From an uncultured Pirellulaceae bacterium (GTDB taxonomy: Bacteria > Planctomycetota > Planctomycetia > Pirellulales > Pirellulaceae), in assembly GCA_964458385.1 (NCBI GenBank), contig CAYWIS010000032.1, forward strand, positions 1 to 28,902: DNA of 28,902 nucleotides, written 5' to 3'. Within the stretch, counting starts at the first letter, position 1; every line of letters begins with the position of its first letter. The notes beneath the pieces are model-generated. The model saw nothing but the letters and a program-made list of their open reading frames with translations, did not search any database and was not told the origin of the DNA. A program made the position numbers and the translations under genes. This document shows, one piece after another, positions 8,954 to 23,600 of the stretch.

Positions 8954-8973
8954 TCCGGTTTCTTGCGGGTTGT

Positions 8974-10311
8974 TTAGTTGCTGGTCCAGATGCGACGCTG
9001 ACGGGAGGAAGGAATCCCCATCTTCTTGCGGTACTTGGTGATGGTCCGCCGCGCGACGTTGTAGCCTTGCGATTTCAGCCGCTTGACCAACTCGTCGTCG
9101 CTGTAGGGTTTGTGCTTGTCCTCCTGATCGATCAGGTCTTGGAGTCGCACGCGGATGGTGTCCCAGGCCACGTCTTCGCCGTCGTCACTCTTGGTGCCGC
9201 CGACAAAGAACCGCTTGAGCGGATAAATGCCGCGAGGGGTCTGAATCCACTTGTCGTCCACCGCTCGGCTAACGGTGGTGACATGGACGCCCACCTTATC
9301 GGCGATTTGCTGCATCTTGAGCGGCTCCAGCGCCTCGGGGCCTTCCTCGAGGAACTTGACCTGGTGGTCAATAATCGCTTGGGCCACGCGGGTCAGCGTG
9401 TTGCGGCGCTGCTCAATTGACTCAATCAGCCATTGGGCCGCATTGATCTTACGCTTGATAAATTCTTTTTCTTCGGGCGTGGCGTTCCCGTTCATCAGCC
9501 GCTTGCGGTAATAGGGGCTGATCCGCAAGGTCGGTGTGTCGCCGTCTTCCAGACGCACCACATACGTGCCGTTGCTGTCGCGCTCCACATACAAATCGGG
9601 CGTGACCGCACGGACGCTAACATCGCTGAAGTCGGCGCCAGGCTTGGGGTTCAGTTTCCGCAGCTCGTCCCAAGCGGCCTGAATGGTTTCCAGCGAGTAG
9701 CCGGTTTTGCGCTGGATGGCCGGCAGACGGTTGTCGCGAAGGTCCTCCAAGTGCCCCGAAATGAGCGTTTTCAGCTCTTCATAATAGGGCATGTCGGGAG
9801 TCAACTGCAGCAATAGGCATTCCCGCAACGAGCGAGCGCCCACGCCGGCCGGCTCCAAACTCTGCACCACATGCAGCGCTTCTTGCGCAATGGCTTGCAG
9901 TTCTTCGTCGGCGTTGGGAGGCAACAAGTCTTCCAAGTTGCCTTTGAGATATCCGTTGGAGTCCAGGCTGGAAATGATCCGCTCGCACATGGAGTGCACC
10001 TTGGGATCTAGCTCCAGCTCGCCCAGTTGGTGATCCAAGTAATCGTATAACGATTCGTGCCGCGCCAGGGCGTTGGCCATGGCGTCGTGCTTGCGGTCGG
10101 CCTCTTCGTCCAGGCGGGTGGCCGAGGGGCGAGTATGCTCCTCGTAGGTCTCGGGCAACTCGTCGCCCATGTTGAGCAGCCGCTCGAAATCTTCGGCGTT
10201 ATCGTGGGCGGTGTCCACGATCAGTTCTTTTTCGGTGTCGAGGGGCGAGTCGGGATCCTCGCGCTCCTCGGGCTCATCGGGCAAGTCGGGGTCGCGCTCT
10301 TGGATCTCCAA
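8974..10311 (-). CDS. rpoN: RNA polymerase sigma-54 factor RpoN, main body (regions II-III). The reading frame continues upstream but is interrupted by a TAG (see next feature).
   Basis: 445-aa ORF with the sigma-54 DNA-binding HTH (MQQIADKVGVHVTTVSRAVDDKWIQTPRGIYPLKRFF) and RpoN box (ARRTITKYRKKMGIPSSRQRR). It also has the acidic region II and the core-binding region. The listed start is a TTG that is simply the first start-type codon after an in-frame stop. Confidence 0.85.
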   Translation of the reverse strand: MEIQERDPDLPDEPEEREDPDSPLDTEKELIVDTAHDNAEDFERLLNMGDELPETYEEHTRPSATRLDEEADRKHDAMANALARHESLYDYLDHQLGELELDPKVHSMCERIISSLDSNGYLKGNLEDLLPPNADEELQAIAQEALHVVQSLEPAGVGARSLRECLLLQLTPDMPYYEELKTLISGHLEDLRDNRLPAIQRKTGYSLETIQAAWDELRKLNPKPGADFSDVSVRAVTPDLYVERDSNGTYVVRLEDGDTPTLRISPYYRKRLMNGNATPEEKEFIKRKINAAQWLIESIEQRRNTLTRVAQAIIDHQVKFLEEGPEALEPLKMQQIADKVGVHVTTVSRAVDDKWIQTPRGIYPLKRFFVGGTKSDDGEDVAWDTIRVRLQDLIDQEDKHKPYSDDELVKRLKSQGYNVARRTITKYRKKMGIPSSRQRRIWTSN

Positions 10312-10353
10312 AACCGGGTTCTCGATAACTTCCTGTTCGATGCGCTCTTGAAT

Positions 10354-10440
10354 CTACATCGACTGGATCATCCGCGGCGCCAGGATCATGGTCTGCTTTT
10401 GCTGGAGCTTCTGCTCCATGCCCATCGACATTTTCAACAT
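10354..10440 (-). pseudogene. rpoN: Detached sigma-54 region I fragment: 28 codons from ATG 10440, ending in an in-frame TAG (10356..10354), in the same frame as the rpoN body
   Basis: My translation of the minus strand gives ATG TTG AAA ATG TCG ATG GGC ATG GAG CAG AAG CTC CAG CAA AAG CAG ACC ATG ATC CTG GCG CCG CGG ATG ATC CAG TCG ATG TAG. This reads MLKMSMGMEQKLQQKQTMILAPRMIQSM*. It continues in frame as IQERIEQEVIENPVLEIQERDPD into the listed ORF. The Gln-rich leader ...QQKQ..L.P.M.QS. is the start of sigma-54 region I. Confidence 0.7.
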
Positions 10441-10519
10441 GGCTCTGCGCCTTCGGTTCCGAGAGGAAGAACTCGACGGTCCGTCAAGTCGCTTAAATCT
10501 AATTTACCATCTTTTCCAA

Positions 10520-11119
10520 CTAGAACTTCTGCCGACCCACCAGGGCGTCGGCCAGAATCTCCCGATTGGTGTATTCCAGGATGCTCCCGGTGGTGATGCC
10601 GCGGGCTAAGCGCGTAATGGTCACCGGGGCGTCGGCCAGGGCATTGGCAATGTGCAAGGCGGTGCCATCGCCCTCGACCGTAGGGTTGGTGGCCATAATG
10701 ACTTCCTGCACCTCGCCTTGATGCACGCGATTGACTAGCGCGTCGATCGTCAATTGGTCGGGGCCGATTCCCTCCAAGGGCGCGATCCTTCCCAACAACA
10801 CGTGATAAAGGCCACGGTAAACGCCAGCCTGCTCCAGGGCCATAACGTCGCGCGGCTGCTCGACCACGCACAGTTGCGATCGATCGCGCTGCGGGTCGCG
10901 GCAAATTTCGCACAATTCGTCTTCGGCCAGGAAGTAACATTGACGGCAATAATGCAGGTTTTCGCGGACGTTCCGGATCGCGTCCGCCAGCGCCAAGGCC
11001 TCGGCCTTGTTGACGCGAAGCACGTGATAAGCCAATCGCTCCGCCGATTTTTGTCCGATGCCTGGCAGCTTGGCGAATTGCTCGATCAAGTTCGCCAGCG
11101 ATTCGGAAAACTGCGCCAT
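10520..11119 (-). CDS. recR: Recombination protein RecR
   Basis: 199 aa. Helix-hairpin-helix LIEQFAKLPGIGQKSAERLAYHVL, C4 zinc finger CRQCYFLAEDELCEIC, and a Toprim region (CVVEQPRDVMALE ... VIMATNPTVEGDGTA). The start codon lies 3 nt after the ybaB stop. Confidence 0.95.
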   Translation of the reverse strand: MAQFSESLANLIEQFAKLPGIGQKSAERLAYHVLRVNKAEALALADAIRNVRENLHYCRQCYFLAEDELCEICRDPQRDRSQLCVVEQPRDVMALEQAGVYRGLYHVLLGRIAPLEGIGPDQLTIDALVNRVHQGEVQEVIMATNPTVEGDGTALHIANALADAPVTITRLARGITTGSILEYTNREILADALVGRQKF

Positions 11120-11122
11120 GAA

Positions 11123-11485
11123 TTACGCCTTTTCGCCTCCGCCGGTGAGCTGTTCCCAGGCCTTCTCCAACCCCGGCAGATCGAGCCCTGCGGCCAAGCC
11201 GCGCATCGCCTCGGCGTGGCGTTGCCGGGATTTGGCGATCGCTTCGTTCACGGCGGCCGGGATGAGGTCTTCAAGCATTTCCAGTTCGCCGCGCTCCAGC
11301 AACTGCGGATCGAGCTTGAGCCGCACGATCTCCCCCAAGCCGTTGGCCTCGACTTCGACCATCCCCGCTCCGACCGAGGCGGTCACCCGCTCGGACCGAA
11401 GGCGTTGATTGATCTCTTGCATCCTGCCGCCCATCTGTTGGGCTTGCTTCATCAGGGTGGTTAAGTTGCCTAGTCCTTTAAACAC
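11123..11485 (-). CDS. ybaB: YbaB/EbfC-family nucleoid-associated protein
   Basis: The listed ORF 11123..11560 would overlap the dnaX 3' end. The in-frame GTG at 11485 is preceded by GAAGGAG (6-nt spacer). It gives (M)FKGLGNLTTLMKQAQQMGGRMQEINQRL, the canonical YbaB N-terminus. 120 aa. dnaX-ybaB-recR synteny is classical. Confidence 0.9.
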   Translation of the reverse strand: MFKGLGNLTTLMKQAQQMGGRMQEINQRLRSERVTASVGAGMVEVEANGLGEIVRLKLDPQLLERGELEMLEDLIPAAVNEAIAKSRQRHAEAMRGLAAGLDLPGLEKAWEQLTGGGEKA

Positions 11486-11522
11486 GCGGGACTCCTTCAC
11501 GGGAACGGCAAGGCGCGGGGCG

Positions 11523-13286
11523 TTAATCGGCTCGCAGGATTTCGGCGTCGAAAAGGGCAATGGCCTCGCTGACCAGGGGATGCGAGCGTAGCTCAGCGAT
11601 CCGCTGTTGGCGAGAGACAGGACGACGCGCCATCTCTGGCGGAACCTCCTGGCGCACCGGCGCGGTTGCCTGGAATACTACTGCAATTGGCGTGCCAACA
11701 ATCGTCCGAATCGCTTCGTCAATTTTTTGCTTATGCTCCGGACGCTCGCATTGCTGGCGCTGAAAATTATAGTTCTCGGGAAAGGAGACGACCAGCCGAT
11801 TTGGCGCGGAAATTGCTACAGAGGTGGCGAACCGCGCAAAGTCCGCCGTCAGCCCTGTGAGCAGGTCGAGCGCCGCGCGCCATACTTGGGGCGCCGATTC
11901 GGCCGTCAGCTCAATGGCTGGCGTTGCTTCCGCTGGCGGAGCCGTCTCTGTAGCTGGGGGGGGGGGTGGCGCTGGGCTTGGAGCGACCGCCCGCGGCGCT
12001 CCGTTACTTGGTACGTTTTTTTTTTCGCCTACCGGGGGCGCGGGTGGCGCAGGGCGCGCGGGAGCGCGACCGGTGGACGAATTGGCCGGAGCGCCGTCGC
12101 GTACCGCCGCCACCAGCGACGCCAATTCGTCCAGGTTTTCCAGGTGGCAGGCTCGCACCAACGCTACTTCCAGTAGCACCCGGCCATGGGTGCTTTGTCG
12201 CATCCGCACCACCGCCTGATCGAGAATCTGCACAATCGCCAGGATGGTTTCCAACCCCAACCCTTCGGCGGCTGCACGCAAACGGGGGAAGTCGTTTGGC
12301 AGGGTGTGCAGCATCAGTTCTTCGCCGCATCCCACCGAGGCGGCCATCAGGTCGCGAAAGTACCCCAAGAGTTGCTCGGAAAGTTGGCCTACGTCGACTC
12401 CTTCACTCAAGGCGCGGTCCAGTTCCGCCAGCGCTCCCGCCGGATTGCGCGCGATCACTTGCCCCGCCAAAGTTTCAATTGCTCCGCCGCGAGCCGTGCC
12501 CAGCATAGCGTGCACATCGTCGGCGGTGATGGTGGAGCCACAGAACGATAAGAGTTGCTCCAACAGCGACTGGCTGTCGCGCATTGACCCGGCTGCACGG
12601 CGGGCTAGGAGTTGAAGGGCCTCGGGCTCCGCCTGAACGCCTTCTGACTCGACAATGTATCGCAGCCGTTCGCTGATGGCGTCGGTCTTGACCGGTGCAA
12701 AGTCGAACCGTTGGCACCGCGACAAGACGGTGATGGGGATCTTCTCTGGGTCCGTCGTGCAAAAAATGAACTTCACATGCTCGGGCGGCTCCTCCAAGGT
12801 CTTCAACAGCGCGTTGAAGGCCTGGTTGGTGAGCATGTGAACTTCGTCGATGATGTAGATCTTGAACCGCGCGCGGCTGGGACGCACGTTTACGTTGCTG
12901 CGCAACTGGCGGATCTCGTCGATGCCGCGGTTGCTGGCGCCGTCGATTTCCAGCACGTCTACGTCTTCCCCGGCGGCAATGCTGCGGCAAATGTCGCATT
13001 CATTGCAGGGGGTAGAGGTCGGGCCACGCTCACAGTTCAGCGCCTTGGCGAAGATACGGGCGGTGGACGTTTTGCCCACGCCTCGCGCGCCGGTAAACAA
13101 GTACGCATGGCCGACGCGGTTGGTGGCGATGGCGTTGCGCATCGCTTGGGCCACTTGCGGTTGGCCAACCAACTCTTCAAACGATTGGGGCCGATACCGC
13201 CGGGCGACCACAACATATTCGGCCGAGCGGCCCTCTTCAGTCGGAAGCGGTTGCGGGGCCTGAGCGGCCGTCGATTTCTTCGCCAT
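11523..13286 (-). CDS. dnaX: DNA polymerase III subunits gamma/tau (DnaX)
   Basis: The ATG at 13286 gives MAKKSTAAQ... (the listed 13340 start is a GTG). The AAA+ clamp-loader motifs are present: RYRPQSFEELVGQ, Walker A FTGARGVGKTSTARIFAKALNC, zinc module CNECDIC, Walker B IYIIDEVHML and sensor SRC (VLSRCQRF). A Pro/Ala-rich linker and a C-terminal tau-specific domain follow. 587 aa. Confidence 0.95.
   Translation of the reverse strand: MAKKSTAAQAPQPLPTEEGRSAEYVVVARRYRPQSFEELVGQPQVAQAMRNAIATNRVGHAYLFTGARGVGKTSTARIFAKALNCERGPTSTPCNECDICRSIAAGEDVDVLEIDGASNRGIDEIRQLRSNVNVRPSRARFKIYIIDEVHMLTNQAFNALLKTLEEPPEHVKFIFCTTDPEKIPITVLSRCQRFDFAPVKTDAISERLRYIVESEGVQAEPEALQLLARRAAGSMRDSQSLLEQLLSFCGSTITADDVHAMLGTARGGAIETLAGQVIARNPAGALAELDRALSEGVDVGQLSEQLLGYFRDLMAASVGCGEELMLHTLPNDFPRLRAAAEGLGLETILAIVQILDQAVVRMRQSTHGRVLLEVALVRACHLENLDELASLVAAVRDGAPANSSTGRAPARPAPPAPPVGEKKNVPSNGAPRAVAPSPAPPPPPATETAPPAEATPAIELTAESAPQVWRAALDLLTGLTADFARFATSVAISAPNRLVVSFPENYNFQRQQCERPEHKQKIDEAIRTIVGTPIAVVFQATAPVRQEVPPEMARRPVSRQQRIAELRSHPLVSEAIALFDAEILRAD
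12004..12026 (-). promoter_or_regulatory. dnaX: Candidate dnaX recoding site: A10 slippery run with a -1 frame TAA four codons downstream
   Basis: The mRNA sense strand reads G GAA AAA AAA AAC GTA CCA AGT AAC (T10 on the plus strand at 12016..12025). The zero frame gives EKKNVPSN. After a -1 slip or one extra A, the frame reads AAA CGT ACC AAG TAA, with the TAA at 12006..12004. The run contains A_AAA_AAA and A_AAA_AAC heptamers. It starts at codon 421, in the linker after the clamp-loader domains. Confidence 0.45.
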
Positions 13287-13560
13287 AACGCCGGATGGTG
13301 CGAACGAACAAGGAACTCCGCCCGTCAAGGCGTTGCGCACCGAAGATTACCTGCGTTAGTCGCCTCCGTCAATTTCGTCTGGCGCGCCTCAGGGAGAGAT
13401 CCTCAAAGAAGATAAGTTACGAGGACTAGGGCTATATCAACGTTTCGTTATGGGAGAGCGGCAGGGGCATTCTACGGCTGACGGCTAGCGTCTTGCCGCT
13501 CACGTTGCCCAGACGATTGGCAACCCTCATCTTGAACGTTGATCAAGGATTTCGCGCCGG

Positions 13561-13684
13561 CGCTCGCCACTGCCGGAAAGCGGCCCCCGCACAAGAGTAC
13601 CCCGCTTAGAGCTGCTCCAGTTAAGGCCTGACTCGGTTCACGGCTCCCCCTTGCGAGGGCCACTTTCCCGCAGTGATGCGAGCG
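13561..13684 (-). ncRNA. ffs: Signal recognition particle RNA (4.5S-type SRP RNA, ffs)
   Basis: The minus strand folds into one long hairpin. 5' CUGCGGGAAAGUGGCCCUCGC (13673..13653) pairs with GCGGGGGCCGCUUUCCGGCAG (13590..13570) at 20 of 21 positions, including 2 G-U pairs. An outer 7-bp extension pairs CGCUCGC (13684..13678) with GCGAGCG (13567..13561). The apical part, GUGAACCGAGUCAGGCCUUAACUGGAGCAGCUCUAAGCGG, matches the conserved domain IV pattern of E. coli 4.5S RNA (UCAGG-stem-tetraloop-stem-AGCAGC). Here the loop is a UAAC (URRC-type) loop instead of GGAA. The location directly upstream of dnaX-ybaB-recR is the classical ffs position. The ends are approximate. Confidence 0.7.
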
Positions 13685-13953
13685 ACAGTATGAGTATTGT
13701 TACCGCTTTCCCCCCGCAGGTAAAGCGGGCGACCCACAACGATTCTTTACAGGCAGCGCCTGTAAGAACTTTGAAATGAGAAAGAAGACGCCAAGAGCAG
13801 GATCAGCAACGCTCCTTCTGACTGTCGGGAAGCCACACGCACTCATTGCGATTGAGCAGGCGTCTGATCCGATGTGGGTTGTGATGCAGCAAGAACACGA
13901 ACGGCAAAAGCCGCTTGCCTCCAACAGGTGAGCGTCCCTTTGGAGAATCGGCG

Positions 13954-14655
13954 CTACTTCGGCTCAAAGAACATCATGTGTTGCCAGGGTAGCTCGTCAA
14001 ACTCCTTGACCAGCTTAAAACCGTTGGCGGTGAGTTCTTTGTTGATTTGCTTCTTGCTCATCTTGTGAAGCGGCTTGATGGGCACGGCGGGATCCTCGGC
14101 GCGGAACTCAACCAGCACTAGCCGACCGCTGGGCGCCAGCGCTTGCCGCATCGCCGCCAACATGTGCTCGGGATGCGAAAACTCGTGGTACACGTCGACG
14201 CACAAGATCAGGTCGACTTGGCCGGCGGGTAAGTGGGGATCAATGGGCGAGCCGTGAATGGGAGTGACGTTCGTAATGCCCGCTTTCTCGGCGCGCTCGG
14301 TCAGGAATTGCAGCATCTCGCGCTGGATGTCAACTCCGAGCACTTTGCCTTCAGGGCCGACCATTTTGGCGAGCTTGAGCGAATGATAGCCATTGCCGCA
14401 GCCCATGTCGCACACGGTCATGCCGGGTTTGACGCCCAGGTTCGCCAGCATCAGTTCGGCCCGTTCTTCGTTTTCGCGTGTGTCGCGGGTAAGCCATTCG
14501 GCGCCCAAGTAGTGCATCGTTTGGGCGATTTCTCGCCCCATATAGTGCGTCAGCGCCGGCGGCAGTTGCGGCGCCGTTGCTTGTTCCTGAGCCGTTAGCG
14601 AAACGGGCGCCAAGATGTACACGAACCCCAGCGCAAGCAAAGCGAGTCGTGGCAT
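13954..14655 (-). CDS. Class I SAM-dependent methyltransferase with a cleavable-looking N-terminal signal peptide
   Basis: 233 aa. The N-terminus MPRLALLALGFVYILAPVSLTAQEQ is signal-peptide-like. SAM-binding motif I is VCDMGCGNGYHS. It also has the post-I acidic residue (VLGVDIQ) and motif II-like LILCVDVYHE. Confidence 0.85.
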   Translation of the reverse strand: MPRLALLALGFVYILAPVSLTAQEQATAPQLPPALTHYMGREIAQTMHYLGAEWLTRDTRENEERAELMLANLGVKPGMTVCDMGCGNGYHSLKLAKMVGPEGKVLGVDIQREMLQFLTERAEKAGITNVTPIHGSPIDPHLPAGQVDLILCVDVYHEFSHPEHMLAAMRQALAPSGRLVLVEFRAEDPAVPIKPLHKMSKKQINKELTANGFKLVKEFDELPWQHMMFFEPK

Positions 14656-14777
14656 GACGAGAATTCACGAAAAGGGAGGTGACTACGCCGCCCGCCAGCG
14701 CGGCGTCTAGCTCGCATCCTAACAACCCCCACAGCGCAGTGAAAGAGTGACGGTGGCGATCTTCCTCATACGCCCAA

Positions 14778-15791
14778 TTAAATATGACCAAGCAAAACTT
14801 TTGCCGCTTGCCGGATTTTCATTTCATCGCCTTCCCGCGCGTCGTGGTATTGAAACAACTCCATGTACGTTGGTAGGTTCGCCGAACGCAGATAGATTGG
14901 CAGTAAGAGGTTGTCGCTGGACTTACGTTGACGTAAGAGCGCGATATTGAACTCCTCAAGACAGACTTTCGACTGAAGGTAATCGGGCGAGTATACGCAG
15001 ACCACTTTGCGGGAAGCGTCGAGCGCTTCAAATATCTTTTGCTGCCAAGCCGCCCCCGGGTTCAGTTCCAGGCGGTCAAGGAACAGCCGCAGCGAAGGTC
15101 GCTCTGTTCTCAGGGTGTCGACCAGGCAGTCCACCTCGTCCTTGTTCTTGTGACAGTAGCTAACAAAAACGTCGAACTCGAACGAGGGCGATGGCGGCGC
15201 CAAATAAGCGAAACGCTGCTTCACTTGCCGAAATACTTCCTGCTGTGCTTGAACGTCCACCGACTCGGAAACGACGATTTTGATACGATCCACGGGCAGG
15301 CCGATCGATAGCCAGTGGACGGCCGTGTCCGCTAATACCTCCAGCATCTTCTCGGGCGGCTCTTTCCGAGCGCCGGCCGCTACAACCGGCAGCGCAATTT
15401 GCGAGATGGGCGACGTCCTCGTGGTGAAGGGGAAGATGCTGCGGAAGATGTCTCCTACGACTTCCGCCACACTTCCTTGTTCAGGAGGCTCAAAGCAGAG
15501 GATTCGGCGGAAGGCAATATCTGGCCGATTAATTGGGCGCGATAGCCAACACGAAGAAAACGCCCGCAGATCCACCTCTTTGTCGCGGGCAAGCTCTTCC
15601 ACCGAAACGCCGCGCCGGTGGAGTGCGCCAATCACACTGGTCCGCGTGGGCAAATAATCGTTGGGAAAGGCGGAAACGACCAGTAAATCAACGGCCTCGT
15701 CCTGCGGCAATTGGGAAATGTCGCCGACGAACAGCATGACTGAGCGATCTTGGCCCTGGTGGGGAACAATAATCTGGCCAAGGAGTTTCAT
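14778..15791 (-). CDS. Two-domain protein: N-terminal macro-like domain (tentative) fused to a C-terminal TIR domain
   Basis: 337 aa. Residues of about 205-320 are a clear TIR domain: FDVFVSYCHKNKDEVDCLVDTL...FLDRLELNPGAAWQQKIFEALDASRKVVCVYSPDYLQSKVCLEEFNIAL. This shows the bA strand DVFVSY, W..I..AL..S, and the C.EE motif carrying the candidate catalytic Glu. Residues 1-195 show macro-like spacing. VMLFVGDISQLPQDEAVDLLVVSAF compares with canonical GDIT..DAIVNAAN, and ISQIALPVVAAGARKEPPEKMLEVLADTAVHWL compares with SIAFPAISTG..G.P. No Gly-rich GGGV loop is present. GGGAG lies 9 nt upstream of ATG 15791. Confidence 0.8.
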   Translation of the reverse strand: MKLLGQIIVPHQGQDRSVMLFVGDISQLPQDEAVDLLVVSAFPNDYLPTRTSVIGALHRRGVSVEELARDKEVDLRAFSSCWLSRPINRPDIAFRRILCFEPPEQGSVAEVVGDIFRSIFPFTTRTSPISQIALPVVAAGARKEPPEKMLEVLADTAVHWLSIGLPVDRIKIVVSESVDVQAQQEVFRQVKQRFAYLAPPSPSFEFDVFVSYCHKNKDEVDCLVDTLRTERPSLRLFLDRLELNPGAAWQQKIFEALDASRKVVCVYSPDYLQSKVCLEEFNIALLRQRKSSDNLLLPIYLRSANLPTYMELFQYHDAREGDEMKIRQAAKVLLGHI

Positions 15792-16150
15792 GGTTTAGGT
15801 CTCCCGTCGCTGCTCGCAGGGAATTTGTCATTTGTCTTTGGGAAAATTTGATCGTAGCCGCGCTCCCTCGGTGGCGCTAAGAGCGACTTGCCACAACATG
15901 GCTGCAATACAGATGAGAACTGCAAGTTGTCCTGCGTCGGCTGCCGTCTGGCTAAGCACAATTTACTCAGGCGGTTTGCTACTCGATACGATCCTACCCG
16001 GAAACTATCTCCTGCAAATGGCGCGACGCCGCGACGACCGCAACGCAGCTGCAGACATGGTGCAGCGAAAGAGCGACGGGCAAGCTGGCATTGCGGTATG
16101 GGATGCGGCATATTGGTTGGATTCAACCACCAATAATGATGTGGCGAGCG

Positions 16151-17563
16151 ATGAAACCTTCTTATTGTTTCAATTTCCGCGAGGCTCACGGGTGGAGCCG
16201 CCGCGAGGTGTTGCGCGTCGGCAGCTTGAGCCTGTTGGGCTTAACGTTGCCAGAACTGCTTGCGGCGCCGGCGCCCGCACAAGGAGATCAAGGGCCGGCG
16301 TTCGGCCGCGCTAAGGCGTGCATCTTGTTGTTCATGTGGGGCGGCCCGGCGCACCAGGATACTTTTGACCTCAAACCCGAGGCGCCCGTGGAAGTGCGGG
16401 GCGAGTTCCAGCCCATCTCGACCAATGTGCCCGGCATCCAGATTTGCGAACACTTGCCCGAACTCGCCCGGCGGGTCGATAAACTAGCAATTGTGCGGTC
16501 GATGACGCATGGCGATGTGAACCACACCTCGGCGACGCACTTCCTCTTGACCGGCCAGCCTCCCCCGCAAAGCAGAGAGCGTGCGGCTCAGTGGCCGCAT
16601 TTGGGCTCCGTGCTAAGCCGCTTAGGGCGCGGACGCGGACCGTTGCCGCCGTTTGTGTCGATGCGGCCCAAGCTGGATAACGACGTGCCCCGGTTTGTTG
16701 AAGAGAGCCAAGGTCAATTCGCCGGATGGCTTGGTCCTGCCTTTGACCCGCTGACGATCGATCACGACCCCAGTCGCGCTGACTACCGCGTGGGTGAGTT
16801 GACGTTGCCGCCTGAGTTGTCGCTGGGACGCCTGGAAGACCGATCGCAACTGCGGGCCGACCTGAACCGGCAATTGGAGCTGCTTTCGCCCGCCGCCGTC
16901 GCCCGCGACGTTAACTATCGCCGTGCGTACGATCTGTTAACGGCAACGGCCGCCGGGAGCGGCGCCTTCAACCTGTCTGACGAACCCGCCGCAGTGCGCG
17001 AGCGGTATGGTTTGAACCCTCACGGCCAATCGGTGCTGCAAGCCCGCCGCCTAGTCGAACGCGGCGTGCCGCTTGTGACGGTGTTCTGGCCCAACGACGG
17101 CATCAAGAACGTCTCGGTGTATTGGGACACACACAGCCGCAATTTTGTCGATCTGAAAGAGCGGCTGATGCCGGTGGCCGATCAAGCGTTCTCAGCTTTG
17201 CTTGACGATCTGGCGGAGCGCGGGCTTTTAGACGAAACGCTGGTGGTGTGGACCGGCGAGTTCGGCCGGACGCCTCGCGTCGGCCAACGTAATAGCGACG
17301 CCGGCGCTGGCGCCGACGGCCGCGATCATTGGCCGGGCTGCTTCACTACCGTGCTTGCTGGCGGCGGCGTGCGCGGCGGCCAAGTGTACGGTCGCAGCGA
17401 CCGACATGCCGCGTGGCCGGCCGATAACCCGGTATCGCCCCAAGACCTGATCGCTACGGTCTACCACGCATTGGGCGTCCCGCGCGAACAGACGCTTCCC
17501 GACGTGCAGGGCCGCCCCCTCCAAGTCAACCCGGGCCGGCCAATCCTTGAGTTGCTGGGGTAA
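16151..17563 (+). CDS. DUF1501 domain protein (sulfatase-like fold) with a twin-arginine (Tat) signal
   Basis: The in-frame ATG at 16151 gives MKPSYCFNFREAHGWSRREVLRVGSLSLLGLTLPELLAAPA, with Tat motif SRREVL. Alternative ATGs lie at 16136 and 16139. DUF1501-typical segments: CILLFMWGGPAHQDTFDLKPEAP, AIVRSMTHGDVNHTSATHFLLTG, VVWTGEFGRTPRV, GRDHWP. 470 aa. Confidence 0.85.
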   Translation: MKPSYCFNFREAHGWSRREVLRVGSLSLLGLTLPELLAAPAPAQGDQGPAFGRAKACILLFMWGGPAHQDTFDLKPEAPVEVRGEFQPISTNVPGIQICEHLPELARRVDKLAIVRSMTHGDVNHTSATHFLLTGQPPPQSRERAAQWPHLGSVLSRLGRGRGPLPPFVSMRPKLDNDVPRFVEESQGQFAGWLGPAFDPLTIDHDPSRADYRVGELTLPPELSLGRLEDRSQLRADLNRQLELLSPAAVARDVNYRRAYDLLTATAAGSGAFNLSDEPAAVRERYGLNPHGQSVLQARRLVERGVPLVTVFWPNDGIKNVSVYWDTHSRNFVDLKERLMPVADQAFSALLDDLAERGLLDETLVVWTGEFGRTPRVGQRNSDAGAGADGRDHWPGCFTTVLAGGGVRGGQVYGRSDRHAAWPADNPVSPQDLIATVYHALGVPREQTLPDVQGRPLQVNPGRPILELLG

Positions 17564-17660
17564 CGCCTTTTTCTGGTCCATCCACGTCAGGACAAAGAAG
17601 GCTCCGGCAGCGTTCCAAGGGCGCGGCGGGGAGCAGCGTCTTGCAGGGGGTTCACGTCCC

Positions 17661-18041
17661 TTAAGAACGCGACAGTAATATCGCTAACAGTTCGCGGTTG
17701 CCGGCGGGGAATTCGTAATCGGCGAGCGCCTCGCGAGCGACCCAAACAAAGGGAGCGCGGGGCGGCTGTGTGGGATCCAGGGGACGGCAGGCGAAGAACC
17801 GCAGGTGGACCGAACCATGGTCGTAGTGCTGAACGACCGACGGATATTCGCCCACCACTTGGATTGCGTAGCCGGTTTCTTCGCGGCATTCGCGTGTGGC
17901 GGCGTCGGCGGCGGTTTCGCCCGGTTCGACCTTGCCACCGGGGAACTCCCATAACCCGGCAAGCGCTACGCCTTCGGGACGGCGGCCAATAAGGAACCGC
18001 CCCTGGTGCTCAACCACGGCAATGGCAATCGCCTTGGGCAT
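17661..18041 (-). CDS. mutT: NUDIX hydrolase, MutT-like (deoxy)nucleoside triphosphate pyrophosphohydrolase
   Basis: The ATG at 18041 gives [21 protein letters not shown] (the listed 18083 start is a TTG). The Nudix box [24 protein letters not shown] fits GX5EX7REUXEEXGU. 126 aa. It lies 81 nt downstream of the VWA protein gene on the same strand. Confidence 0.8.
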
Positions 18042-18122
18042 GCGTCGATGATCTCTTGTGTGTGGAGCGAGAAAGCGAGACAAGCCATCGCGAGACTGAG
18101 TTGCACGTCACACAGGCTCATC

Positions 18123-20477
18123 TTACGCCAACCCATGCCAGCGACGCAGGCCCCATTCGGCAACAAGACAGGCTAACGCAAAGCAGAACACCCACGCCTG
18201 ATGCCACAAGGGATAAAGCCACGGCTCTGTCACGGGAACAGGGCGATTCGGCAGGTCGGCCGCCCATGCGTTCAATCGGTTCTGGGGAACCACGGCGCCG
18301 CCGGTCTTTTGCGCCAGTTCTTCCAATAGCTCACGGTGCGGCGCAAGGCGGCGGAACTCGTCGGCGGCCGGTTCGGCGGTCCAGCCGGCTTCGGTGGCTC
18401 CCAGCTCGGACCCGTCGGGACCGTGCACCGAAATGGTCGCTCGATACGCCCCTGCCTGCCGCGGTACGAAGGTGGTTTCGTACACTCCCGCCCGCTGCGA
18501 GCTTGGGGCGGCCGCCAATTCGATCGACTGGCCGTCGGGCTGCGTGATTTGCATCGTCACTGCGGCGTTGTCGAGCGGTTGAAACTCCTCGTCGCGCACG
18601 TCGACCGAAAGCACCACCGGCGCGCCGGGTTGGTCGCGGCGCCGCTGGACGTCGGCCTCGATGCGCTGCGGCACGTCGGACACCAACCAGCGGATCGTTT
18701 GCCGCCACGCTTTCTCCAGGTCGCGTTCGCCGTTTTCGGGACGGTGCATGCCCCATCGCCACAGGTCGCCAATCATCAAGGCCGCCGTGCGGCCGGCGCC
18801 AAACGGCTGCGCGGCCAAGGCCGGCAACTCTTCGCCTTGATTGGTGGTGACGGTGGCCAGCACGGCCGCTCCTGGTTTAACGGCGCGCACGGCATTCACC
18901 GTTTGAAAAGGCGGCATGGCCGCTAGCCGGGCTCGCTCGTCGTCTTCGTTGGCGCGCACGCGGACCCACGGCGAGAGCCAGCCTTCGCGCGTTAACGTCA
19001 GGCGGAAGCGTTCGGCTCGTTGGGCGGGCGGAATGCGGTCTAGGTAAACCGGCAACATTTCCCCCAACGGCGTGCGGTCGTAACGTCCTTTGACGAACGA
19101 CTCTTGGCCGCCCAGCATGAGCAAGCCGCCGCCGCGCCGCCGCACAAATTCCTGCAAGAGCCGCATCTGATCGGAGGTGAAGAATTCGGCTTCTACATCG
19201 TCGAGCACGACCGCATGGTAGCGGAACAGCAGGTCGGCGGTTTTGGGAAAACCGCCGCGTAGCTCCGAAGCATCTTCGGCGCCTAATCGGAGTATCACCG
19301 GCTCGTCATATTGTTCGGCGTCGTCCGGCTCCACGTTATCGAAGCCGCGAAAGAGCGGATTGGTCCGATGGTCGCGGTTTTCTCGGAAGGTGAACTTCGG
19401 TTCGCGCCGCGCGATCCGAATCAGGCCCACTAGGTCGACCTCGGGGTCTTCCTCCAACGCGCGGCGGAGAAATTTGAACTCCCAATTAGGCCGGCCCGAA
19501 ACGTACAGTACCCGATACGGCCCCTGGCCGCGATCGACCACCACCCACCGCGTGTTGTTGGCTAAGGTTGCTTCGCGCGAGCGGTCTGGATGGTCGAACA
19601 CGTCTGTTTCCGACGCGGCCGCTACGCGCACCTGGTAGAAGTGGACGCCGCCTCGTTCGGGGCGCGTTTGGAATCGGGCCCGCGGCGGCGCGTCGGCCGA
19701 CGCCGTGAGGGTTTGTTGCTCTAGCACTTTGCCGCGAGCATCAAGAAGTTGCGCTGTGATCTGTTGTCCTTCGTAACCGGCAACGTCGATGGGGGCTTCG
19801 ATGGTAACCGGCGCCGCCTCGAAATTGGTCTGACTGACGCGCAAGGCGCCAATCGCCAGATCCTGGGGAGAATCGTCGTCGCCCAGCGCCACAGGATAAA
19901 TCGGCGGAAGCGCGGACCAGTCCAAGTTCAAGTCGGATAGCGAGACAGCGTCGGTCGCATTGCCGTCGGTCCAAAGCAGAATGCCCGCCAGCGGCCGCCC
20001 CCGGAACCGCTGGGCGATGCTTTGGAGCGAGGCCGACAACGTCGAGGCGGCTCCGTCGAAGGTTAAGGCGTGGAAGTCGGGCGTGGACCGTAGCCGCGAG
20101 TCGAAGAGATACCGCCGCACGTCGAAATCCTGTTCCAGCCGCATCCGCCAGGGGGATTCCGCGGTGAGCTGGCGTTTGACGATCTCGCCGCGGCTTTCTC
20201 GTTGGCCGGCGTCGCGAACCGTCAGACTTTGGCTGTTATCGGCCAACACCACAAACAGGTTGGCGCCGGGTCGGGGCCGATTGCCGCTTAAGAGCGGTTC
20301 GATCAGACACACCGCCAGCGCCAACACCGCCAGCGTTTTCAGGGTTGCCGCAACGATCCGCACGCGGCGCGGTCCGGGCGAACGTACATAGGACCACACC
20401 AGCGCCAAAAGCGCGACGGTGGCCAGGATGACCGCAGGCAGCGCCCACTCGGGCGCGCCCCAGACAAGCTGAGACAT
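18123..20477 (-). CDS. BatA/BatB-like membrane protein: N-terminal TM pair, VWA-like region with a DxSxS motif, class-I glutamine-amidotransferase-like (DUF1355-type) domain, C-terminal TM anchor
   Basis: The ATG at 20477 is preceded by GGAG (7-nt spacer) and gives MSQLVWGAPEWALPAVILATVALLALVWSY. The listed 20582 start is a TTG. MIDAS-like LFVVLADNSQSL. RVLYVSGRPNWEFKFLRRAL and GGGLLMLGG are typical of the amidotransferase-like domain of Bat-type proteins. The C-terminal helix is AWVFCFALACLVAEWGL. 784 aa. Confidence 0.7.
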   Translation of the reverse strand: MSQLVWGAPEWALPAVILATVALLALVWSYVRSPGPRRVRIVAATLKTLAVLALAVCLIEPLLSGNRPRPGANLFVVLADNSQSLTVRDAGQRESRGEIVKRQLTAESPWRMRLEQDFDVRRYLFDSRLRSTPDFHALTFDGAASTLSASLQSIAQRFRGRPLAGILLWTDGNATDAVSLSDLNLDWSALPPIYPVALGDDDSPQDLAIGALRVSQTNFEAAPVTIEAPIDVAGYEGQQITAQLLDARGKVLEQQTLTASADAPPRARFQTRPERGGVHFYQVRVAAASETDVFDHPDRSREATLANNTRWVVVDRGQGPYRVLYVSGRPNWEFKFLRRALEEDPEVDLVGLIRIARREPKFTFRENRDHRTNPLFRGFDNVEPDDAEQYDEPVILRLGAEDASELRGGFPKTADLLFRYHAVVLDDVEAEFFTSDQMRLLQEFVRRRGGGLLMLGGQESFVKGRYDRTPLGEMLPVYLDRIPPAQRAERFRLTLTREGWLSPWVRVRANEDDERARLAAMPPFQTVNAVRAVKPGAAVLATVTTNQGEELPALAAQPFGAGRTAALMIGDLWRWGMHRPENGERDLEKAWRQTIRWLVSDVPQRIEADVQRRRDQPGAPVVLSVDVRDEEFQPLDNAAVTMQITQPDGQSIELAAAPSSQRAGVYETTFVPRQAGAYRATISVHGPDGSELGATEAGWTAEPAADEFRRLAPHRELLEELAQKTGGAVVPQNRLNAWAADLPNRPVPVTEPWLYPLWHQAWVFCFALACLVAEWGLRRWHGLA

Positions 20478-20608
20478 GGCAAACTCCTGCTGGGAGCGCG
20501 GAGATTCACCGCCGCTCTGGCGGGCTCCTTGGACGAGTGTGCGTCCAAATCGGGGGGCGGCGTTTCCCAAGGAAAGACGCAAACGCCAGGAAGGCTCCGC
20601 ACGCTCCC

Positions 20609-23600
20609 TTATTTTCCGCGGCCTAGCTCTTCATAGTAGCGGCGCACGGGGTCAACGAACTGCGGAGGAACGGGATCGCGATCGATGGGGGTGAGCGTGT
20701 CGGGAGACTGGCGGCGAATGAGCTCCTCGGCCACCCGGTCGCGGAGGTCGGCCAGAGGTTCAAGCAGCTCCAGACGCACCAGGTCCCAGTTGGGCTCGCG
20801 CGAGTGGCGTTTGTATTCGGCGCGCATGGCGCGAGCACGGTCGCGCACGCGGGCGGCCTCGCCCCGCAACTCGGGGTCGTCGAGCATCTCCTCTACATCG
20901 CGCAACTGGTCGGACCATTCGCGGAAGTTCTCGCCGGTCAGCGGGTTCATTGGTCCGCCTTGGTGATCGAATGCGCCGCCGCTGGGACCACTACGGTCAA
21001 AGGACGGGGGCTCTTGGTTGCGGTCATTGCGCAGCGACCGTGGACGGCGCGCCGGCGACGTGGGATCTTCGGCGTTTCCGCCTCCTGATGCTGCCCCTTG
21101 TTGCGGCGACGACCCTTGTTGCGATGCGGAACCTTGTGGTTGCGAATCTCCCTGCGACTGCGATTCTCCTTGTTGTTGTCCCGGCTGCCGGGAATCTTCT
21201 GACGGCGGTTGTTGACCCGACTGTTGCTGACCTGATTGCCGCTGGCCTGATTGCTGCTGGCCCGAGTTCTCCTGTTGGTCTGACGGGGGTTGTTGGTCGG
21301 ATTGCTGCTGTCGGCCTGGTTGCTGCGATTGGCCTGGTTGCTGTGCTGAGTTTGGTTGTTTGTTCTGGCTGCCCGATTGCTCCGATTCTTGCAGTGCGCC
21401 TTGCTCGGGGCGGCGATCTGTCGGGTCTTGAGGCGTGTTGCCTGATGCTTGTTCGCGGGATTCCGCCTCGCGCCTTAGTTGCTCCGTCAGATCTTGCAGC
21501 GTTTCGTGCGCGCGGCGCAGGGCTTCGGTTCCATCGCCAAGGATACTTTCAGCGGCGCGTTCCACGCCTTGCCGCAGGTTCTCCAAGCCACGCTGTGCGG
21601 CCTGTTCGGCGGGGGCGGCTTGATCCACCAGCCCAGCTTGGGCGAGTTGCCGGGCTGTCTCCAATGCGCGGTCGATGCGCTCCTGCCGGGCGTTGCGGAG
21701 ACTTTCATAAAGTTGGTCCGCCAAGAGCGGTTCAGGCTGCTCGGCTTCTTTTACGACTTCCTCCATTTGATTAAGCAGCCGTTGAAGGTCTTGTTGTTGC
21801 CTTTCAAAGCCGCGGGCGATCTCTTCGCTGGCGACCGCGTCGCGGAGGGTGCGAGGCCGGTCAGGGCGATTGGCGTCTTGCATCTGTTGGGCAAGGCGGC
21901 GTTCGTTTTCCTCGAGTTCGCGGGCGGCTTGACGCATCTCGCGCAGTTGTTCGTCGAACTGGCCGGCGGCGCGGCGGCGGAACTCGTCGCGGAGGGCTTC
22001 GAATTCGCGCTGGGCGCGGGAGCCTTCGGCCAGCGCTTGGGAGACACGGCCTTGCTCGAGCGCCTCGGACGCCCGGCGGACGTTTTCGCGGCTTTCGTTC
22101 AAGCGTTGCTGCGCTTCGGCCATCGCTTGTTGATCTTGGGCCTGATCCATCCGTTCGCGCAGCTCATCAATATCGCGCAGCATCTGCTGCTCTTCTTCCC
22201 TTAGCCGCTTCAACCGGCGGCGGATTTCTTCTCGCTCCTCTTCGGTCGTTGCTTGCTCCAGTGCGGCTTGCATTTCCTGGAGTTGCTTGTTCAGGTCTTC
22301 TTGCCTTTGGGCCAACTCGCGAAGACGATTAAGCGTTTGCCGAACTTCTCGCTGTTGAGCTTCTTGCGTGCGGTCCCGCGCGGTGCGCTGGTCTTCGTAG
22401 CGGTTTTCATCGTTCCGCAATTCCAGTTGATCCAGTTGCCGCTGCATGGCGCCGCCGCCACCACCCCCGCCGCCCGATTGCTGCTGGGAGCGAGAGCGCG
22501 TCACCTGATACTCGCGGGCCCGCAGCTTGAGCAGCCCTTGGTAGGCCGCCTGCTCCTCGGGCAACGCGTCGCGGAGCGGTTCGGGCGATTCGTCATCGAC
22601 CGCGCGCATCAAGTTCTGTGTGGCGGCGACCATGTGGCGTTTGGCTTCCTCCACATAGTCTTGCGATTGCCGGTCCTGCACGCGGTCTGCAAGCTCCTCT
22701 AGTTGCTCCAACGCCGCGCCTTGCGACTCGACTAACAACCGAACGTCGGGCGCGAACTGAGAGGAGAGGTCGCCGGGCCGTTCACGACGCAAGACGTTCC
22801 AGGCGCCGGCAATGATCTGCTTTTGCAGTTCGGCCAGTTGTTCCGCTTGTTGAGCGTTCTGCCCCGCTTGCTGTTGCTGCTGCTGTTGTTGTTGCCCGCC
22901 CGCCGGCTGCTCGCCTTCACGAAAGATTTCTTCAAAACGGCGGACTTCGGCAAAGAAGATATCGCTCAAGGTGCGTCGCACTTGGCCGTCGGGCCCGTAA
23001 TCCTCGGCGAAGAAGTAGTAGGAAAGGAGTTGATCGGGCTCGGCCTGCAATTGCTCCAGGTCGATCTGGTGAGCCAGAGAGCGGCGCTCCTTGGGGCGGC
23101 CTCCTTCGCCGAGCACAACCTCTTGTTCCTCTTGGCCCGCGTGGCTAAAGATTATGCCGTAACGCCCAAGCCCGAAGTCATCCCAGACGGTCGCTTCCAG
23201 GTCGAACTCCTCAAGCGGTGAAACCTGCGTGTCGCGCGCGGGCCAAGCGATTTCGATCTCGGCCGGCCGGTTGGGAATTACATTCGCCACCAACTCGGGC
23301 GGTTCGGGATTGGTGCGGCCCTGCGCGTCCTGCAAATGTAGGCGGTGTCGCCGGGTTTGGGTCATCGTGAACGAGACGGTGTAGACCGTGGGATCGTCGG
23401 CGCTGGCGGTCAAGGGCAGGGTTTCGCCATCGTCGCTTTCCAAGTGCGCCGATGCGACCGGCTTGTTGAGTCGGCAAACCCACGTGAGACGCGTTCCCTC
23501 GACCGCGGTCACGCGCCGGGTATCGGCCACTTCTTTTTCTGGCAACGAGGTGTACTCGGGGAACGCTAGCTTCGCGTCGGCTTGCAACATCGCGGGATAT

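Follow-up and report, generated by a model that had tools for sequence, protein, structure and literature searches.

A divergent macro-fold domain fused to a TIR domain in an uncultured Pirellulaceae bacterium: a candidate self-contained NAD+-cleaving effector

In bacteria, plants and animals alike, TIR domains play a central part in immunity, both as executioners and as makers of signals, and for each new TIR family the main question to be answered is how the domain is switched on. This question is raised by a gene located in the window analyzed here, a 28,902-nucleotide stretch of DNA from an uncultured Pirellulaceae bacterium. The original prediction described its product as an orphan protein, in which a C-terminal TIR domain is preceded by a macro-like domain.

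Gene organization and locus

The reading frame is found exactly as predicted, and its features are as follows:

14778..15791, minus strand: complete open reading frame (337 aa plus TAA stop, ATG start) for a macro-like domain, a short linker and a TIR domain
15198..15791, minus strand: divergent macro-fold domain, residues 1-198 (AF2, Foldseek, profile match to Af1521, hhalign to YmdB)
15717..15725, minus strand: G23-D24-I25, equivalent of the macrodomain GDIT motif with its adenine-contacting Asp (aligned to YmdB G10-D11-I12)
15627..15677, minus strand: V39-S40-A41-F42-P43 and loop P43..G55, replacing the NAAN motif and Gly-rich loop 1 (YmdB alignment, conservation)
15486..15497, minus strand: C99-F100-E101-P102 motif at the position of the macrodomain (H)xVGP strand (YmdB alignment, conservation)
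15357..15395, minus strand: A133-L-P135-V-V-A138-A-G140..P145, equivalent of phosphate-binding loop 2, AFPxISTGxxGxP (profile and YmdB alignment)
15180..15197, minus strand: Pro/Ser-rich interdomain linker PPSPSF, residues 199-204 (low model confidence)
14781..15179, minus strand: TIR domain, residues 205-337 (Pfam matches; PDB sequence and fold matches)
15042..15056, minus strand: G246-A-A-W249-Q250, conserved BB-loop region of the TIR domain (conservation, pLDDT)
14952..14954, minus strand: codon of E280, the predicted catalytic Glu, in S274-K-V-C277-L-E-E280-F (conservation and motif register)

The ATG start is supported by the conserved N terminus of the family, since M1 is aligned with M1 in 101 of 112 homologues. 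As described before, the flanking genes code for a class I SAM methyltransferase with a signal-like N terminus and a DUF1501 protein. The window copy lies between ffs-dnaX-recR-rpoN and DUF1501-NUDIX. No other gene in the window is as low in GC content (0.552, the others ranging from 0.59 to 0.65), while its GC3 of 0.648 is similar to that of two other window genes, and the compositional deviation is mild.

The gene was previously proposed to form a separate transcription unit, with a hairpin behind the stop codon as evidence. The proposal is retained on other grounds: the intergenic gaps around the gene (122 bp and about 300 bp; the median same-strand gaps in 80 homologous loci are about 300 and 225 bp) suggest a separate unit better than the hairpin does. 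The 7-bp inverted repeat (14685-14691/14700-14706) is present, but it has no U-tract, the terminator scan makes no call there, and the folding of the region does not exceed that of shuffled sequences (z=+1.36; 184 of 200 shuffles fold equally well or better), so that it provides no evidence for a terminator.

No defence partner is encoded among the ten flanking window proteins scanned, which cover about 8.7 kb on either side (6073-24454), consistent with the earlier statement that no canonical partner adjoins the gene. In particular, no SIR2-SLOG, Macro-TM, SLATT or caspase effector was found among these ten proteins. The PADLOC matches of the window methyltransferase (mad2) and NUDIX protein (PDC-S07) were dismissed as generic fold matches that do not represent systems. 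An upstream ORF of 133 aa (15788..16189, minus strand), overlapping the gene start by ATGA, was likewise rejected as a partner because of its junk-like composition and the lack of a homologue at the compared loci (81 homologue loci and the E. coli ymdB locus; best tblastn E=0.31).

Domain architecture of the protein

The TIR domain is recognized by two Pfam profiles scoring above their curated thresholds, TIR_2 (E=3.8e-22, 79.5 bits with a cut-off of 28, residues 208-327) and TIR (E=6e-13, 49.4 bits with a cut-off of 21.3), which assigns it to the TIR superfamily (PF13676/PF01582) and bears out the original prediction, as do PDB sequence matches to TIRs. The PDB sequence and fold matches of this part comprise MAL, MyD88, TRR-2, L6, RUN1 and AbTIR, and weak sequence matches include Cat1, TIR-STING and AbTIR. 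The sequence is nearest to adaptor-type TIRs, e.g., MAL and MyD88. These two adaptor-type TIRs have no Glu at the position of E280.

E280 belongs to the motif CLEEF (residues 277-281), within SKVCLEEF at window positions 14949-14972. It is assigned as the catalytic position because it is in register with the S-x-x-C-L-x-E-L motif of plant and bacterial TIRs. The conservation of this Glu, anticipated from the single sequence, is nearly complete: it is present in 111 of 112 close homologues and in 111 of the 114 sequences of a divergent set (the window protein and 113 representatives), the other three carrying Asp. A catalytic Glu is needed in AbTIR (E208), BdTIR (E127), TcpO (E279) and ThsB (E85) (PMC10022894). 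The TIR domain of the window protein probably cleaves NAD+, as judged from its sequence. In the BB-loop region, G246 and W249 are at least 93% conserved in the divergent set, and the low pLDDT at residues 243-245 is typical of a mobile loop. The AF2 model has pLDDT below 50 in the linker region (residues 198-201) and a full-length pTM of only 0.59, which makes the interdomain geometry uncertain.

Models of known defence proteins match the TIR part weakly or incompletely. The curated scores of ThsB/ThcB models are not reached: NCBIfam Thoeris_type3_ThcB4 gives 25.7 bits, far from its cut-off of 220. The PADLOC ThsB models match only the TIR part, the best of them being ThsB1 with E=2.7e-4, and the PADLOC ThsA models do not match the protein. 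Membership in PADLOC PDC-S66 was considered and rejected: residues 193-301 align with profile positions 136-242 of 282 (E=3.7e-11), leaving the macro-like domain outside the match.

Residues 1-198 are not recognized by any model of Pfam, NCBIfam or PADLOC, and Pfam Macro (PF01661) does not match the protein even at E<=1. The AF2 models of the full-length protein and of the N-domain have pLDDT of 88 and 92, respectively (91.8 for the latter, with pTM 0.89). In a Foldseek search of the PDB, 49 of the top 50 matches of the N-domain are macrodomains or macro-carrier fusions (TM 0.55-0.71). OiMacroD, YmdB, MacroD2, macroH2A and PARP9/14/15 are matched by both models with a probability of 1.0 and TM of 0.6-0.7; the macrodomain-fused SirTM (8rsn) is among the fold matches, and the viral library matches are macro or PARG proteins. 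An identity as a SLOG, CARF, SAVED or Rossmann-like domain was rejected, since no such fold is present among the matches, which are of macro type. As modelled, residues 1-198 adopt the three-layer alpha/beta/alpha macro fold, in line with the earlier suggestion. The RMSD of 4-5 Å indicates strong divergence from known macrodomains. Searched against PDB sequences, the family profile finds Af1521 as its best match (E=0.003; the match spans loop 2 and the C-terminal helix), and hhalign aligns the domain with YmdB over its full length and in register, although weakly (E=0.011, probability 3.8%, single sequence).

The N-terminal motifs noted earlier, GDI (23-25), VSAFP (39-43) and ALPVVAAG (133-140), are all present, in register with GDIT, VNAANP and AFPAISTG of E. 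coli YmdB. Among the elements that contact ADP-ribose in macrodomains, the Asp D24 (D in 110 of 114 divergent-set sequences) and loop 2 (A133..G140; AAGARKE in the window protein, ASGDQGE in the family consensus) are retained, while the Gly-rich loop 1 is replaced: G30-G33 of YmdB align to T49-R50-T51-S52, which agrees with the reported lack of a Gly-rich phosphate loop. Both residues of MacroD-type hydrolases, the Asn of NAAN and the Asp of GGG-V-D, are substituted as well; the catalytic N25 of YmdB corresponds to F42 (F in 106 of 112 homologues) and the catalytic D35 to I54 (I or V in 112 of 112). Owing to the replacement of this loop and of the catalytic Asn and Asp, the domain is probably a binder rather than a MacroD-type hydrolase, in accordance with the initial guess of a binding-only or divergent macrodomain. 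The family has invariant or nearly invariant residues of its own, including S40, Y46 and, in close homologues, P48, and E101 is retained in 100% of the sequences, those of the divergent and Ralstonia branches included. Its invariant polar residues (S40, Y46, D74, S84, E101 and C99) could constitute a different active site.

Distribution, genomic context and fusion partners

The N-domain query retrieved 405 homologues, nearly all of about 340 aa and of the same architecture. The two domains occur together, in the order macro-like-TIR, in 125 of 150 representatives; 22, probably fragments for the most part, stop just past the macro-like domain, and only 3 continue otherwise. The macro-like and TIR domains thus form an obligate dyad. 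The macro-like family comprises 1,146 representative clusters at E<=1e-3, with TIR as the partner in more than 1,000 representative proteins. Fusions of the dyad itself to further modules occur as well, namely to Hsp70, Ser/Thr kinase, FHA, VipA/VipB, NUDIX, GT4-conflict and CHAT+NB-ARC (STAND) modules and to extra TIRs, and in these the dyad takes the terminal position, as is typical of effectors. The gene is more than an isolated orphan, the dyad being a widely reused cassette.

The dyad is a rare, horizontally scattered cassette, present in 155 of 185,579 species genomes (about 0.08%) and spread at 40-60% identity over more than 10 phyla and an archaeon; the taxa include cyanobacteria, Chloroflexota, actinomycetes, myxobacteria and planctomycetes. 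The gene is absent from the orthologous DUF1501-NUDIX loci of related planctomycetes. Their contigs keep DUF1501-NUDIX but not the arrangement on the opposite side, so that the comparison establishes only a synteny breakpoint and not a clean "empty site". No phage copies were found, including in an IMG/VR search, and no plasmid copies apart from the Ralstonia branch described below.

All-against-all ORF clustering across 80 homologous loci revealed no conserved partner gene. When 149 immediate neighbours were scanned with Pfam and PADLOC, only scattered defence-type matches were obtained, 4 of the neighbours being a second TIR gene. The closest relative (75% identical) adjoins an SNF2 helicase and an MmeI-type methylase, and another adjoins a ThsB-like TIR, a NERD-kinase and a patatin. 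The defence-island association is modest: the location of the closest relative in a defence-like locus, unlike that of the window copy, supports it, but many copies, the window's included, are located amid housekeeping genes.

The latter location, shared by the window copy and several others, together with the lack of detected phage or IMG/VR copies and the mild compositional deviation (GC3), is consistent with a role outside immunity and conflict, in which the protein would regulate NAD+/ADP-ribose metabolism as a housekeeping function or act as a TIR scaffold without enzymatic activity. This role is improbable, given the rare and phylum-hopping spread, the absence of the gene at the orthologous locus of related planctomycetes, the conserved Glu at the catalytic position, and fusion partners typical of conflict systems (CHAT-STAND, VipA/B, GT4-conflict, extra TIRs). 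Nor does the dyad behave as a housekeeping family at a fixed locus, the situation that the original prediction had named as speaking against it: the few genomes that carry it share no common neighbour.

Alternatively, the protein may be a ThsB-like sensor and signal generator, in which the macro-like domain would sense infection and the TIR domain would release a diffusible ADPR-derived signal to an effector encoded elsewhere in the genome. Precedent is provided by Thoeris, where TIR proteins with variable accessory domains produce the signal and Macro domains read ADPR-based signals (bioRxiv 10.1101/2024.01.03.573942; PMC11204291). The weak matches between the TIR part and the PADLOC/NCBIfam models for ThsB and ThcB4 and the second TIR gene beside a few loci point in the same direction. 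The ThsB-model matches, however, are far below the cut-offs, no conserved partner occurs in the 80 loci, and the ten flanking window proteins scanned include no cognate effector of Thoeris types I-IV, be it of the SIR2-SLOG, Macro-TM, SLATT or caspase kind. To our knowledge, bacterial signalling systems are almost always operonic, and a dispersed system of this kind is quite unlikely.

In 133 Ralstonia megaplasmids, the macro-like domain is fused to an apparently active R-S-ExE ADP-ribosyltransferase (ART). The TIR and ART fusions together indicate that this domain combines with NAD+-using partners of two unrelated folds. A macro domain that occurs together with an ART or a sirtuin is usually a reversal enzyme. 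The macro-like domain could accordingly be read as an enzyme that hydrolyses or processes the product of the attached NAD+-using domain rather than as a sensor. Its targets would be ADPR adducts, cADPR isomers or auto-ADP-ribosylation, and it would serve in cis as an antidote or end the signal, after the models of DarG with DarT, the macrodomain-fused SirTM and the predicted Macro regulators of TIR systems. The fusion to an apparently active ART, the presence of macrodomain-fused SirTM (8rsn) among the fold matches and the strict invariance of S40, Y46, D74, S84 and E101, unexplained by the canonical site, are in favour of such an enzyme, as is the prediction of Iyer et al. that Macro domains regulate TIR systems by targeting cADPR (PMC9503650). 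Nevertheless, the equivalents of the catalytic Asn25 and Asp35 of MacroD/YmdB are Phe and Ile, the GGG loop, which places the distal ribose, has been lost, no alternative catalytic constellation was identified (TARG1 Lys/Asp, PARG QEE), and a hydrolase fused 1:1 to a bulk NADase would bring no obvious benefit. An enzymatic role of the domain is thus considered unlikely.

Proposed function and comparison with known systems

The reading tentatively favoured, with slightly less than even confidence, is that of a horizontally acquired and self-contained TIR NADase effector, in which the macro-like domain would sense a nucleotide and gate the TIR domain. The protein is most likely a one-protein cell-suicide or immune module. 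Its TIR domain would cleave NAD+, either in the manner of an NADase or to make ADPR-derived products, while the macro-like domain would serve as an in-cis nucleotide sensor or gate for NAD+, ADP-ribose or an ADPR derivative and, when occupied by its putative ligand, would control the self-association and activity of the TIR domain. Infection or NAD-metabolic stress could then lead to activation, NAD+ depletion and cell arrest or death. The predicted NADase activity, the putative ligand binding, the proposed gating logic and the presumed immune role would together amount to a producer and a sensor in one chain, as we infer along with the original prediction.

A broader proposal, which is speculative and has a low probability, is that the macro-like domain represents an unrecognised class of sensors of NAD+ or ADPR derivatives, functioning as a portable allosteric switch, and that the stand-alone protein is a self-amplifying single-chain Thoeris. 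Such a switch would control unrelated NAD+-consuming effectors, the TIR domain and the R-S-ExE ART in Ralstonia, by reading the TIR domain's own product or the NAD+/ADPR state of the cell, and this one-protein suicide switch would need no separate signal generator. The links to ART, Hsp70, kinase, VipA/B and CHAT-STAND modules suggest that bacterial conflict systems make general use of an NAD+-linked control module. The macro-like domains make up a sizeable uncatalogued family, absent from Pfam, NCBIfam and PADLOC, whose recognition could improve the annotation of defence systems in Planctomycetota, Chloroflexota and Cyanobacteria, for which few such systems are known. The system is compact and consists of a single gene, and is thus easy to test.

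In the literature searched, no description of the macro-like-TIR dyad was found, an earlier mention in Burroughs et al. 2015 (NAR) being possible; Kaur, Burroughs, Iyer and Aravind (2020/2021) list TIR and Macro as separate effector and ADPr-processing domains (PMC7159879, PMC8195603). The macro-like domain has the same fold as YmdB, OiMacroD, MacroD1/2, Af1521, macroH2A1.1 and PARP9/14, but only about 15% identity. It shares with them, in register, GD(I), the conserved Asp before strand 3 and the A-x-P-x-x-[AS]-x-G loop. The GGG loop is replaced by a conserved P-x-D-Y-x-P-T-x-x-S loop, and W82, C99 and E101 are invariants new to this family.

NTP-dependent conflict systems of multicellular bacteria are found in similar taxa and have a fusion repertoire in common with the dyad (Hsp70-like ATPase, S/T kinase, FHA, CHAT, STAND/NB-ARC, glycosyltransferase, TIR); unlike them, the window copy is a bare cassette without an NTPase or adaptor. 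Type II Thoeris (ThsB TIR and ThsA Macro-TM) likewise pairs a TIR enzyme with a binding Macro domain, which binds and does not hydrolyse His-ADPR (bioRxiv 10.1101/2024.01.03.573942; PMC11204291). There, TIR and Macro reside on separate proteins of an operon and Macro drives a membrane effector, whereas in the window protein they are fused in the order macro-TIR, with no TM segment and no partner.

The closest parallels in design are the ligand-gated NADase effectors TIR-STING, TIR-SAVED (Cap12), Cat1 (CARF-TIR), PucTIR and SARM1 (ARM-SAM-TIR), which combine a nucleotide-binding regulatory domain and a Glu-bearing TIR in a single chain, as proposed for the window protein. By analogy, the proposed logic is alike, with ligand-controlled TIR assembly followed by NAD+ depletion. 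In contrast, no cyclase, CRISPR or other signal-making gene adjoins the window copy, and the regulatory domain has a macro fold instead of being a STING, SAVED, CARF, ARM or cNMP-binding domain. A macro-like gate would have its counterparts in the ARM domain of SARM1 and in STING, SAVED and CARF of TIR-STING, TIR-SAVED and Cat1, and, if the proposal is true, the macro fold would join these known gates of TIR domains.

Domain composition of the macro-TIR protein

The macro-TIR gene is an ORF of 337 codons, running from ATG to TAA on the minus strand of the window:

14778..15791 (-): macro-TIR gene, encoding a macro-like domain (residues 1-198), a linker and a TIR domain (residues 205-337)

By Pfam, the TIR domain spans residues 208-327 (TIR_2, E=3.8e-22; TIR, E=6e-13), and all PDB sequence matches are TIR domains (MAL, MyD88, TRR-2, L6, RUN1, and AbTIR). 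The motif S274-x-x-C277-L-E-E280-F lines up with S-x-x-C-L-x-E-L, the motif found in TIR NADases of plants and bacteria. Residue 280 is glutamate in 111 of 112 close homologues and in 111 of the 114 sequences of a divergent set (the window protein and 113 representatives 34-51% identical to it), the other three carrying aspartate; G246 and W249, in the BB loop, are conserved too. AbTIR, BdTIR, TcpO, and ThsB all need the catalytic glutamate for activity (PMC10022894). By its motifs, the TIR domain looks catalytically competent.

Residues 1-200 have no match in Pfam, NCBIfam or PADLOC. This N-terminal region retrieved 405 homologues, nearly all of about 340 aa and identical architecture, 112 of which were used for an AlphaFold2 model (mean pLDDT 88; N-terminal domain modelled separately, pLDDT 91.8, pTM 0.89). 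In a Foldseek search of the PDB, the C-terminal part returned TIR domains and the N-terminal part almost exclusively macrodomains (probability 1.0, TM 0.55-0.71), including Oceanobacillus MacroD, E. coli YmdB, MacroD1/2, macroH2A, the PARP9/14/15 macros, and Af1521. A viral structure library likewise gave a macro-type answer, and neither search matched the N-terminal domain to SLOG, CARF or SAVED folds. The best PDB match of a 31-sequence profile was Af1521 (E=0.003), aligned at the phosphate-binding loop, and hhalign aligned the domain with the YmdB sequence over its full length and in register. The original prediction had read macro motifs in this region, and the models and the YmdB alignment agree with it: the domain is, on this evidence, a divergent macrodomain.

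In the YmdB alignment, G23-D24 corresponds to the GDIT adenine Asp of macrodomains, D35 to the conserved Asp preceding strand 3, and A133-x-P135-x-x-A138-x-G140 to the AFPxISTG loop. The catalytic Asn25 and Asp35 of YmdB are replaced by F42 and I54, and its GGGG loop by T49-R50-T51-S52, within a family-specific conserved loop, P43-x-D45-Y46-x-P48-T49-x-x-S52. Because the fold and profile matches are to macrodomains and these catalytic elements are replaced, the domain has a macro fold and is predicted not to be a MacroD-type hydrolase. Residues kept across the divergent set (G23, D24, D35, S40, A41, Y46, D74, W82, S84, C99, E101, A133, P135, and G140) point to a specific conserved site, for binding or other chemistry. 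Phosphate loop 2 (window 15357-15395, residues 133-145) reads AAGARKE in the window protein, AGGHQKE in a 75%-identical relative and ASGDQGE in the family consensus, whose Q142 is present in 99 of 112 homologues; by alignment, the change in the first two is lineage-specific and lies in a putative ligand-binding loop.

Genomic context and distribution

Both flanking genes named in the original prediction were confirmed: one encodes a class-I SAM methyltransferase whose N-terminus is signal-like, the other a DUF1501 protein. The 7-bp inverted repeat 3' of the stop codon, which had suggested a separate transcription unit, is present but cannot credibly be called an intrinsic terminator. Planctomycete housekeeping genes make up the wider neighbourhood: rpoN, recR, dnaX, and the SRP RNA on one side, a MutT-type NUDIX together with a BatA-like protein on the other.

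13573-13667 (-): small bacterial SRP RNA (ffs), Rfam RF00169, 48.5 bits
15788-16189 (-): ORF of 133 aa, probably not a gene
17661-18083 (-): MutT-type NUDIX gene
20609-24454 (-): ORF of 1,281 aa

The SRP RNA gene, upstream of dnaX, completes the conserved ffs-dnaX-(ybaB)-recR cluster and is immediately adjoined by the methyltransferase and macro-TIR genes; the window contains no tRNA. The end of the 133-aa ORF overlaps the macro-TIR start codon (ATGA); it probably is no gene, since it has no homologue in 81 homologue loci and the E. coli ymdB locus and its composition is junk-like. The NUDIX gene lies about 2 kb from the macro-TIR gene, probably by coincidence, as it is syntenic with DUF1501 in relatives lacking the TIR gene. 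The 1,281-aa ORF, without Pfam or PADLOC match, adjoins a BatA-like/GATase1-like protein of 819 aa, and AT skew is strongly negative at 20.5-23 kb.

The macro-TIR gene has the lowest GC content in the window (0.552, other genes 0.59-0.65) and the lowest GC3, but marginally. A PADLOC scan of the ten flanking proteins, about 8.7 kb each side, detected no defence partner, only generic methyltransferase and NUDIX fold matches. The DUF1501-NUDIX pair is kept in related planctomycetes (DUF1501 orthologues, 82-84% identity); the sole relative with upstream DNA (locus L088) carries an acetyltransferase where the macro-TIR gene would be, the other two contigs ending there.

With one genome per species, relatives (40-61% identity) occur in only 155 of 185,579 species, spread over Planctomycetota, Acidobacteriota, Chloroflexota, Cyanobacteriota, Actinomycetota, Myxococcota, "delta" lineages, alpha-, beta-, and gamma-Proteobacteria, Gemmatimonadota, Verrucomicrobiota, Bacteroidota, Armatimonadota, and one archaeon, Methanocrinis. 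Phage and IMG/VR collections contain no copies. When all ORFs from 80 loci were clustered, no neighbour proved conserved; the best cluster other than the family itself reached 11 loci, at variable distance. Pfam assigns the 149 immediate neighbours to 118 families, each in at most four loci; extra TIRs, DEAD/ResIII/SNF2 helicases, Uma2, and an N6 methylase occur amid ordinary metabolic genes. The 75%-identical relative has an HTH regulator on one side and an SNF2 helicase and MmeI-type methylase on the other; another has a ThsB-like TIR next in line, with a NERD-kinase and patatin nearby; further relatives are flanked by housekeeping genes. The gene is thus accessory, horizontally scattered and without partner, and its association with defence islands is only modest. 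A ThsB-like signal generator whose effector acts in trans is a quite unlikely reading of the protein, and a non-immune, metabolic or scaffold role appears improbable.

Reuse of the macro-like domain

When 1.84 billion cluster representatives were searched exhaustively with a profile, 1,146 proteins carried the macro-like domain at E<=1e-3 (844 at E<=1e-10). Among the best 150 representatives of these 1,146, TIR directly follows in 125, the chain ends just past the domain in 22, probably mostly fragments, and only three continue into something else. Macro-like plus TIR is thus an obligate dyad, reused as a cassette. Two of the three (P0145 and P0257) may be truncated; the third, P0219 (724 aa), lacks a TIR and carries a tandem pair of macro-like domains, plus 230 aa at the C-terminus that match no Pfam family.

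Extra domains are present in about a quarter of the representatives listed: Hsp70-like ATPase, Ser/Thr kinase, FHA, fused VipA/VipB sheath, an additional N-terminal TIR, RyR, NUDIX, C-terminal OGFr_N, CHAT plus NB-ARC/STAND, and GT4/GT5 glycosyltransferases, including the "GT4-conflict" family. The dyad occupies a protein terminus, the usual position of effectors. The NTP-dependent conflict systems described from multicellular bacteria have this repertoire (PMC7159879, PMC8195603). In P0147, P0179, and P0189, fused T6SS-sheath-like VipA and VipB precede the cassette, and in P0189 (1,717 aa) a Ser/Thr kinase, FHA, and second TIR precede these; it is unusual for a contractile-sheath protein to be fused with a TIR effector. 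In P0161 the cassette is preceded by a NUDIX domain.

The same macro-like domain (hhalign probability 99.9%, E=9e-32) occurs in a 396-aa protein of 133 Ralstonia solanacearum-complex megaplasmids, whose C-terminal half is not TIR but an ADP-ribosyltransferase (ART; PF03496) with the R...S-x-S...E-x-E signature:

L089:5995-7185 (AP024100.1, 2058911-2060101): Ralstonia macro-like-ART protein BCL95478.1, annotated "hypothetical protein"

The operon also encodes a 2,657-aa protein without Pfam match, a 299-aa unknown protein, DUF6508, and a calcineurin-like/ASMase_C phosphoesterase. It looks like an uncharacterised NAD+-dependent toxin/effector locus of a plant pathogen. Because one macro-like domain pairs with two unrelated NAD+-consuming folds, its role is probably tied to NAD+/ADP-ribose chemistry. 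The fusion to ART, together with the DarTG and SirTM-macro precedents, would also speak for a non-canonical hydrolase by which the partner domain's product is reversed or limited; we consider this unlikely.

Proposed function and known systems

The best explanation, which we hold tentatively from motifs, models and analogy, is a self-contained TIR NADase effector. The macro-like domain would act in cis as a nucleotide sensor or gate of the attached TIR, analogously to the gating in SARM1, TIR-STING, TIR-SAVED, and Cat1, and once activated the protein would deplete NAD+, with growth arrest or death as the outcome. Each functional step is predicted; the observations are of folds, motifs, architecture and distribution.

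Full-text search of the literature, a 2015 NAR survey excepted, found no named Macro-TIR fusion, and in the Aravind-group surveys Macro and TIR appear as separate domains only. The protein offers a compact, testable single-gene system and its macro-like domain an uncatalogued family; on the other side stand the great diversity of TIR fusions already on record and a function that is predicted. Defining features of Thoeris, MacroD hydrolases, and PADLOC PDC-S66 are lacking. Of known systems, ligand-gated TIR effectors and type II Thoeris come closest. In the latter, a binding-type Macro domain likewise pairs with TIR by reading its product, but it belongs to a separate protein, together with a membrane effector, whereas here macro and TIR share one chain.
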